Shown one piece after another: positions 15,868 to 16,361 of a DNA stretch of 64,000 bases. Positions within the stretch are counted from its first letter, which is position 1. Every line of letters begins with the position of its first letter. This stretch comes from Eledone cirrhosa (taxonomy: Eukaryota), in assembly GCA_964016885.1 (NCBI GenBank), contig OZ024761.1:23312001-23376000 (forward strand), given 5' to 3'. Made by a program: the position numbers and the translations under genes. Under the pieces are notes generated by a model that worked only from the letters and a program-made list of their open reading frames with translations, did no database searches and had not been told where the DNA came from.

Positions 15868-16022
15868 CATCTATATATATATATATATATATATATATGT
15901 AGGAGGTGAGTTTTATTGTAGTACAATAAAGCAATGCAGATATCGGATAAGAAGCACTCTACAGTTTGTAGGACTGGAGTATGCATAATATAAGATCAAA
16001 AGATGGTTAAAGGAGTTCCATA

Positions 16023-16093
16023 TATTTTATTATGCGCATTTCAAAAACAAACATCATCAAGCAATAATATTTGTGTTTTCATCAGATAAAATA
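16023..16093 (-). ncRNA. Type I hammerhead ribozyme (mirror copy)
   Basis: Exact reverse complement of 16222-16292. Confidence 0.8.
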
Positions 16094-16221
16094 GGAGAAC
16101 ATGATATGAAGGCTAAAAAACACTTGTTGATAGTGCAGTTTTAAATCAACATATCAATTGATATGTTGATTTAAAACTGCACTATCAACAAGTGTTTTTT
16201 AGCCTTCATATCATGTTCTCC

Positions 16222-16292
16222 TATTTTATCTGATGAAAACACAAATATTATTGCTTGATGATGTTTGTTTTTGAAATGCGCATAATAAAATA
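16222..16292 (+). ncRNA. Type I hammerhead ribozyme (intact core)
   Basis: Stem I tattttat/ataaaata; CUGAUGA 16230-16236; long stem II (aaac-acaaatattatt gctt gatgatgtttgt-tttt); GAAA 16273-16276; palindromic stem III AUGCGCAU; cleavage predicted after A16284. Confidence 0.8.
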
Positions 16293-16322
16293 TATGGAAC
16301 TCCTTTAACCATCTTTTGATCT

Positions 16323-16361
<39 letters not shown>

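Follow-up and report, generated by a model that had tools for sequence, protein, structure and literature searches.

How does a perfect palindrome with a hammerhead ribozyme on each of its strands come to lie within a (TA)n microsatellite of Eledone cirrhosa? The palindrome (15985-16330 of the window, that is, of the whole 64-kb stretch of DNA analysed) had been described in a sequence-only reading as a spacerless fold-back derived from a Penelope-like element (PLE). Its 346 bases are exactly their own reverse complement, with arms of 173+173 bp and 0 mismatches as claimed, and it is the sole palindrome in the 64-kb window that has perfect arms of at least 20 bp and a G+C content above 12%. 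We posit that a Hydra-clade PLE recently inserted no more than its leader at this site, by twin priming on one uncleaved RNA, a reading to which we assign a probability of roughly 0.6.

The insertion, its parent element and its relatives in the genome

The full insertion (15897-16330) exceeds the palindrome by an 88-bp tail on the left arm only, which had been overlooked (Table 1). Leader positions are counted here from the ribozyme cut, the last base before the cut being 0; on this scale the left arm and the tail together correspond to -123 to +134 of the parent. The symmetry is exact throughout, but the centre is spacerless only in that sense, as bases 16155-16160 are a non-parental junction insert. 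Given the genome-wide junction counts below, a spacerless centre is common in the family. The 10-bp interruption unit of the flanking microsatellite occurs in 3 and 12 direct and in 1 and 0 inverted copies in the two flanks, which belong to one (TA)n array with the unit in direct orientation, unlike the product of a fold-back chimera.

Table 1. Coordinates of the insertion and of other features in the window.
Feature	Position	Strand	Remarks
Left (TA)n flank	15439..15896	.	compound microsatellite (target); from sequence
Whole insertion	15897..16330	.	two head-to-head PLE leader copies, one tailed, inside (TA)n array
Tail, 88 bp	15897..15984	-	+47..+134 from ribozyme cut; matches L031 4154-4241
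Left arm	15985..16154	-	parent -123..+46; alignment to parent
Junction insert, 6 bp	16155..16160	.	absent from parent; self-complementary by chance
Right (short) arm	16161..16330	+	parent -123..+46; alignment to parent
Right (TA)n flank	16331..16900	.	has the left flank's 10-bp interruption unit, same orientation
Type I hammerhead	16222..16292	+	predicted cut after A16284; core and stems
Stem I	16222-16229 / 16285-16292	+
CUGAUGA	16230-16236	+
Stem II	16237-16272	+	15 pairs
GAAA	16273-16276	+
Stem III region	16276-16283	+	AUGCGCAU
Mirror type I hammerhead	16023..16093	-	predicted cut between 16031 and 16030; mirror of + copy
Kv-type channel frame	23272-24225	-	Pfam Ion_trans
K_chan_RES	23413-23526		Rfam's one match in the window; potassium-channel editing family; inside the Kv-type frame
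Second head-to-head insertion	48085-48675		different hammerhead family; cores 48463 (-), 48580 (+)
GC-richer insertion, ~183 bp	48240-48422		splits left arm of second element; SINE-type look
Tandem arrays	57742-58611 and 60500-61880		long units (about 111 bp and 143 bp), deduced from recurring translations

The arm belongs to a young repeat of the 3.0-Gb genome, and a genome search for a PLE with a matching terminal repeat found an intact element at a locus designated L031. Here, a 795-bp direct repeat with 99% identity flanks an 800-aa ORF. Both repeats contain the hammerhead, with 3,666 nt between the cuts, and a tail follows the first repeat only, so that L031 displays the partial tandem, the hammerhead and the optional tail of a pseudo-LTR. 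The counterpart of the window's tail lies between the end of the pseudo-LTR and the ORF. Since this intact element, of RT plus putative GIY-YIG type, shares its pseudo-LTR with the window, where the long arm shows 2 differences in 258 nt, the PLE origin and recent age proposed in the sequence-only reading are supported. Among 104 scored copies of the ORF, all are 98-100% identical over the first 400 aa and 76 lack a stop over at least 800 aa.

Pfam and PDB sequence searches did not recognize the L031 ORF. It contains a YRDDG motif, and its protein model (pLDDT 59.5) matches RT folds including TERT (E 1e-5 to 1e-6), which identifies an RT domain. At the C-terminus, LIY...YLG and the R, E and N residues are conserved in an alignment with seven relatives, while no profile or fold match to a GIY-YIG domain was obtained. 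Read by eye in this alignment against the description of Craig et al. (PMC8557442), the protein also displays the Hydra-clade motifs RWK and DKT, a CxCX5C linker, CxxC before E and CxH after N, with no CCHH, and the insertion target is (TA)n as for the Hydra clade. Motifs and fold together point to a Hydra-clade PLE as the probable parent. Between RT and EN (residues 560-657), the ORF holds about 70-90 extra Asn/Pro/Thr-rich residues that are absent from the seven relatives; N-rich inserts have been reported in rotifer Penelopes (PMC3846280). Near the parent copy, L031 20-911 and 3200-3359 represent a piece of a further Hydra-like RT/EN element in the reverse orientation. At several places (C1, C4, C5, C10, C13) two full-length ORFs stand head-to-head, 1.3-2.9 kb apart, and at others two or three are arranged in tandem.

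The palindrome belongs to a group of more than a thousand similar insertions, head-to-head like this one, of an active Penelope-like retrotransposon. Genome-wide, the 20-base hammerhead core has 24,808 exact matches. Both arms start at the same base, -123, in at least about 1,290 junctions; in 938 of these the arms overlap cleanly by the 4 bases ATAT, and 281 and 73 contain inserts of one and two bases, respectively, counts to which a few loci contribute two adjacent matches. Among the first 100 core matches on contig C1, a position-ordered sample that covers the start of this one contig, 18 head-to-head pairs lie within 400 bp and the members of a further 14 pairs are 1-5 kb apart, which leaves 36 matches without a partner. 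Almost all of the small pairs in position order (17 of 18) combine one tailed arm ending near +134 with one short arm ending near +46. When aligned to the parent stretch, raw reads of three other samples likewise end at +46 and at +134/+136 into TA, and contain an opposite-strand joint between -123 and +103. No joint at the symmetric centre was seen in the RAD-seq reads, a finding without weight in a reduced sample. The junctions of two loci (L006 and L022) repeat an 8-base unit from the RNA 5' end up to three times, like telomerase-type reiteration.

The window contains a second head-to-head insertion, with one short end and one tailed end (about 95 nt), whose multi-copy hammerhead family yielded 520 candidates, of which 40 were scored. 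The two-ended, head-to-head pattern is therefore not confined to one family. Two short motifs, possibly a protein-binding or start signal, are common to the tails of both families. In the Kv-type frame, S6 reads TVPIIV; S6 of Kv channels usually has PVP.

The hammerhead ribozyme and its template

The sequence-only reading had placed a type I hammerhead on both strands, and its parts are found at those positions: CUGANGA, GAAA and the NUH core occur with stems I-III on the + strand, with the mirror copy on the - strand (Table 1). A search with hammerhead models had also been proposed; Rfam at its gathering thresholds reported neither of the two copies in the window. Across 37 copies, pairing is kept in 97% of stem cells, the changes being mostly one-sided wobble. 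Covariation across these copies, in which columns 61-80 are fixed by the search pattern, was not above that of shuffles, and folding z-scores were not significant for the hammerhead (-1.5) or the 5' hairpin (-0.6). In a prediction for the whole 258-nt leader, stem II forms and stem I rarely does (p about 0.04). For the monomer, the predicted stability falls from -10.1 kcal/mol without stem III to -7.2 kcal/mol with a 2-bp stem III, and an intermolecular stem III is predicted to add about -10.5 kcal/mol. Cleavage would, on these energies, be weak as a monomer and stronger as a dimer. This agrees with the dimer dependence of PLE hammerheads in the literature, and the dimer function ascribed to stem III beforehand is plausible on both grounds.

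It had further been argued that a transcript from either direction would contain the antisense copy first, and that a duplex would compete with self-cleavage. The order is correct for read-through RNA, but not for RNA that begins at the putative start in the centre. In the read-through hairpin (computed energy -276 kcal/mol) the antisense arm would be made first, and the duplex would likely silence the ribozyme instead of competing with it. As the arms begin upstream of the cut site and continue across it, their template must have been uncut or rejoined. The ribozyme is here likely a passenger on an uncut template, and the insertion that results probably leads nowhere for the element.

Origin of the head-to-head arms

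The inner boundary at -123 distinguishes the small copies. Twenty-one paired insertions have an arm that begins at -123 (counted from 30 loci, with duplicates merged and two older-parent copies and one solo arm dropped), and in all 21 the other arm does not go beyond -124. None of 20 copies with an intact ORF ends at -123 and 17 read through it, and an RT pause at this base was rejected on these grounds. In the parent, a pyrimidine precedes the A at -123, and polymerase II starts have a pyrimidine before the starting A. A non-genomic G, as would be added by an RT that copies a cap, precedes each arm at the 6-bp junction insert of the window. Across the genome, 5,377 exact arms have a non-C, and hence non-parental, base before -123; an older parent variant took the place of an added base in 2 of 30 loci examined. 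In the first 100 of these arms the base is G in 41, T in 44 and A in 15. The G signal is confounded, given the number of T and a CA/TG class that may stem from template slippage onto a nearby repeat. The two-base inserts, of which 50 were scored, have G beside the arm in 24 cases, are CC/GG in 15, contain A/T only in nine and fit a genomic C in two. One-base inserts are C/G in 48 of 50 cases, but were set aside as a test for a cap G because the C may be the genomic C of one arm. An internal promoter within the pseudo-LTR has been reported for Penelope. No paper on a cap-derived G was found in the literature searched. We consider -123 the likely 5' end of the RNA, and this end is possibly capped. 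Since long, more-than-unit copies pass -123, they would then call for another template, circular or multimeric, as was proposed by Cervera and de la Pena.

The two arms of an insertion share their alleles. At 25 shared polymorphic sites they agree in 737 of 740 cells, and full agreement is seen in 31 of 33 insertions compared to 11% of 1,055 between-insertion pairs. Private variants are present in both arms in 10 cases and in one arm only in 32, the latter being expected from later mutation. In similarity-selected sets, 6 of 33 rows are discordant at a shared site, two of them by a patch of older alleles. Taken alone, the concordance is also compatible with fold-back, gene conversion or one dominant source locus.

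In L1 twin priming, the two target ends prime on one RNA, which yields an inverted part and a microhomology joint. In the family studied here, by contrast, both primers would be placed at fixed positions inside the RNA, close to its 5' end, and the arms overlap in most cases. We propose that reverse transcription was primed on one uncleaved RNA from both cut ends of the (TA)n target, with +46 and +134, the two outer ends, as putative internal RT start sites and -123 as the 5' end of an RNA, probably capped, from an internal promoter. The cDNA from +134 would then stall at the primer at +46 or displace it, and the two cDNA ends would be joined via microhomology or short inserts. Long copies would arise from RNA in circular or multimeric form, in which -123 is not an end. 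In vitro, a Poseidon PLE cuts and extends both strands, initiates at two internal sites on either side of the tail and copies uncleaved RNA (PMC11167929).

The ATAT end of a single cDNA or antisense RNA might instead have snapped back and been copied into the second arm, as junction palindromes have been read by Arkhipova et al. (PMC3846280). The 938 clean overlaps and the alleles common to both arms would be consistent with such self-priming, but annealing of two 3' ATAT ends explains the overlap equally well, and many junctions have inserts. Fold-back from a tailed cDNA moreover needs a nested short arm, yet in the 26 unequal pairs (differences of more than 5 nt, read from alignments, equal and too-diverged pairs excluded) the short arm extends further 5' in 20 and the tailed arm in 6, and in five insertions the arms do not overlap at all, the tailed arms ending at +49, +53, +55, +82 and +88, a geometry that self-copying of one strand could not produce. 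Fold-back, the mechanism named in the sequence-only reading, is thus unsupported by arms that are so often non-nested, and appears quite improbable to us. If a protein dimer primed on two separate RNAs from one source locus, overlapping arms would require no displacement. Such priming would also account for the few discordant arms and suit both a PLE protein predicted to be a dimer (PMC11167929) and a hammerhead predicted to pair two RNAs via stem III. We nevertheless judge it unlikely, given that short-class and long-class arms are unmixed (21 of 21), that private variants are common to both arms, and that three tailed arms end shortly before +46, which is where a second primer on a single shared RNA would be expected to block them.

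The small palindromes are very numerous and hold the putative start and both RT start sites in each arm, and one might therefore regard them as a self-propagating non-autonomous family, transcribed from its own centre and moved in trans. We give this very little credence: the alleles checked (-97A, -61G, -30T, -29A, +9C and +12T) occur in small and long copies alike, with no private lineage in evidence, junctions are not inherited, and Poseidon RNA needs sequence downstream of the start sites (PMC11167929) that the small copies lack. That this particular copy is an assembly chimera produced by fold-back, or a co-opted regulator of the Kv transcript, deserves next to no weight. Its symmetry is perfect within long microsatellites, the raw-read support comes from three other samples and not from the window's junction, and the Kv-type frame ends at 23272 (-), about 6.9 kb away, in keeping with the roughly 7 kb noted earlier. 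The asymmetric outer ends match the family ends in raw reads, however, the flanks are direct and not mirrored, and this very young copy has thousands of relatives, a copy number that makes a PLE insertion within 7 kb of a gene unremarkable. Nothing in the analysis connected the palindrome to the Kv gene.

Relation to known elements and implications

Head-to-head tailed PLE copies, TA targeting and hammerheads on both strands are already published, including for a Hydra element (PMC8557442). Hydra-clade PLEs such as Penelope-13_HM and Hydra-1_Obim have a canonical type I hammerhead near the 3' end and (TA)n targets, and Penelope-13_HM has an inverted 5'-truncated copy with a hammerhead on both strands (Craig et al., 2021; PMC8557442). 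The family studied here resembles this clade in its C-terminal EN, RW(K/T), DKT, CxCX5C, CxxC-E and N-CxH motifs, type I hammerhead and (TA)n targets. It differs in a unit of 3,666 nt, compared to generally <3 kb, in a hammerhead with a 15-bp stem II and a GCGC-centred stem III, unlike all those listed in the supplement of PMC8557442, and in the leader-only palindrome class, which is undescribed in the text consulted of that paper. The inverted pseudo-LTR plus tail of EN+ PLEs (Penelope, Adineta Pen2a; PMC3846280, PMC8557442) is also head-to-head with a one-sided tail and a junction palindrome, whereas here no ORF lies between the arms, the inner start is fixed and the tail measures 88 bp versus 30-40 bp. 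For the family studied, the arm geometry argues against the self-priming proposed for such inverted copies. Poseidon PAc shares with the mechanism proposed here the two internal RT starts bounding the tail, the cutting of both strands, AT-rich targets and the uncleaved template (Frangieh et al., 2024; PMC11167929); its start sites are inside the ORF, those proposed here upstream of it, and inverted products are unexplained in the part of that study consulted. Non-LTR retrozymes are likewise non-coding, PLE-derived and equipped with a type I hammerhead (10.64898/2026.07.22.740005; see also PMC7229834). Retrozymes are head-to-tail tandems with ribozymes on the same strand (10.64898/2026.07.22.740005), and we rejected this identity for the present copies, which are head-to-head with one ribozyme per strand.

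How PLEs form tails and inverted copies has been named an open question (PMC8557442), and neither twin priming in PLEs nor a leader-only class with a fixed inner start was found in the literature searched, mostly without subscription papers (among them the 2005-2006 PLE reviews). With slightly less than even confidence, we posit that the palindromes are the PLE counterpart of strong-stop DNA: whenever a single leader RNA, capped and uncut, is twin-primed at its two fixed sites, a miniature head-to-head insertion would result, and thousands of these would have formed, while ribozyme-cut, circularised RNA would lead to the long copies. If this holds true, one rule would explain the tail, the inverted copy and the partial tandem of PLEs, and the hammerhead would be the switch that sets productive templates apart from dead-end ones.

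Taken singly, the locus is ordinary, a copy with thousands like it, and its use lies in the population. The landmarks fixed in these thousands of naturally formed products allow self-priming to be told from twin priming and suggest that there are two RNA templates, and the very active family supplies an intact ORF with exact predicted start, priming and cut sites for in vitro testing. It is also a large source of short perfect inverted repeats, which could give rise to double-stranded RNA if they lie within transcripts. The relevance of the palindrome is thus that of a clue to PLE mobility, rather than of a one-off regulatory RNA.
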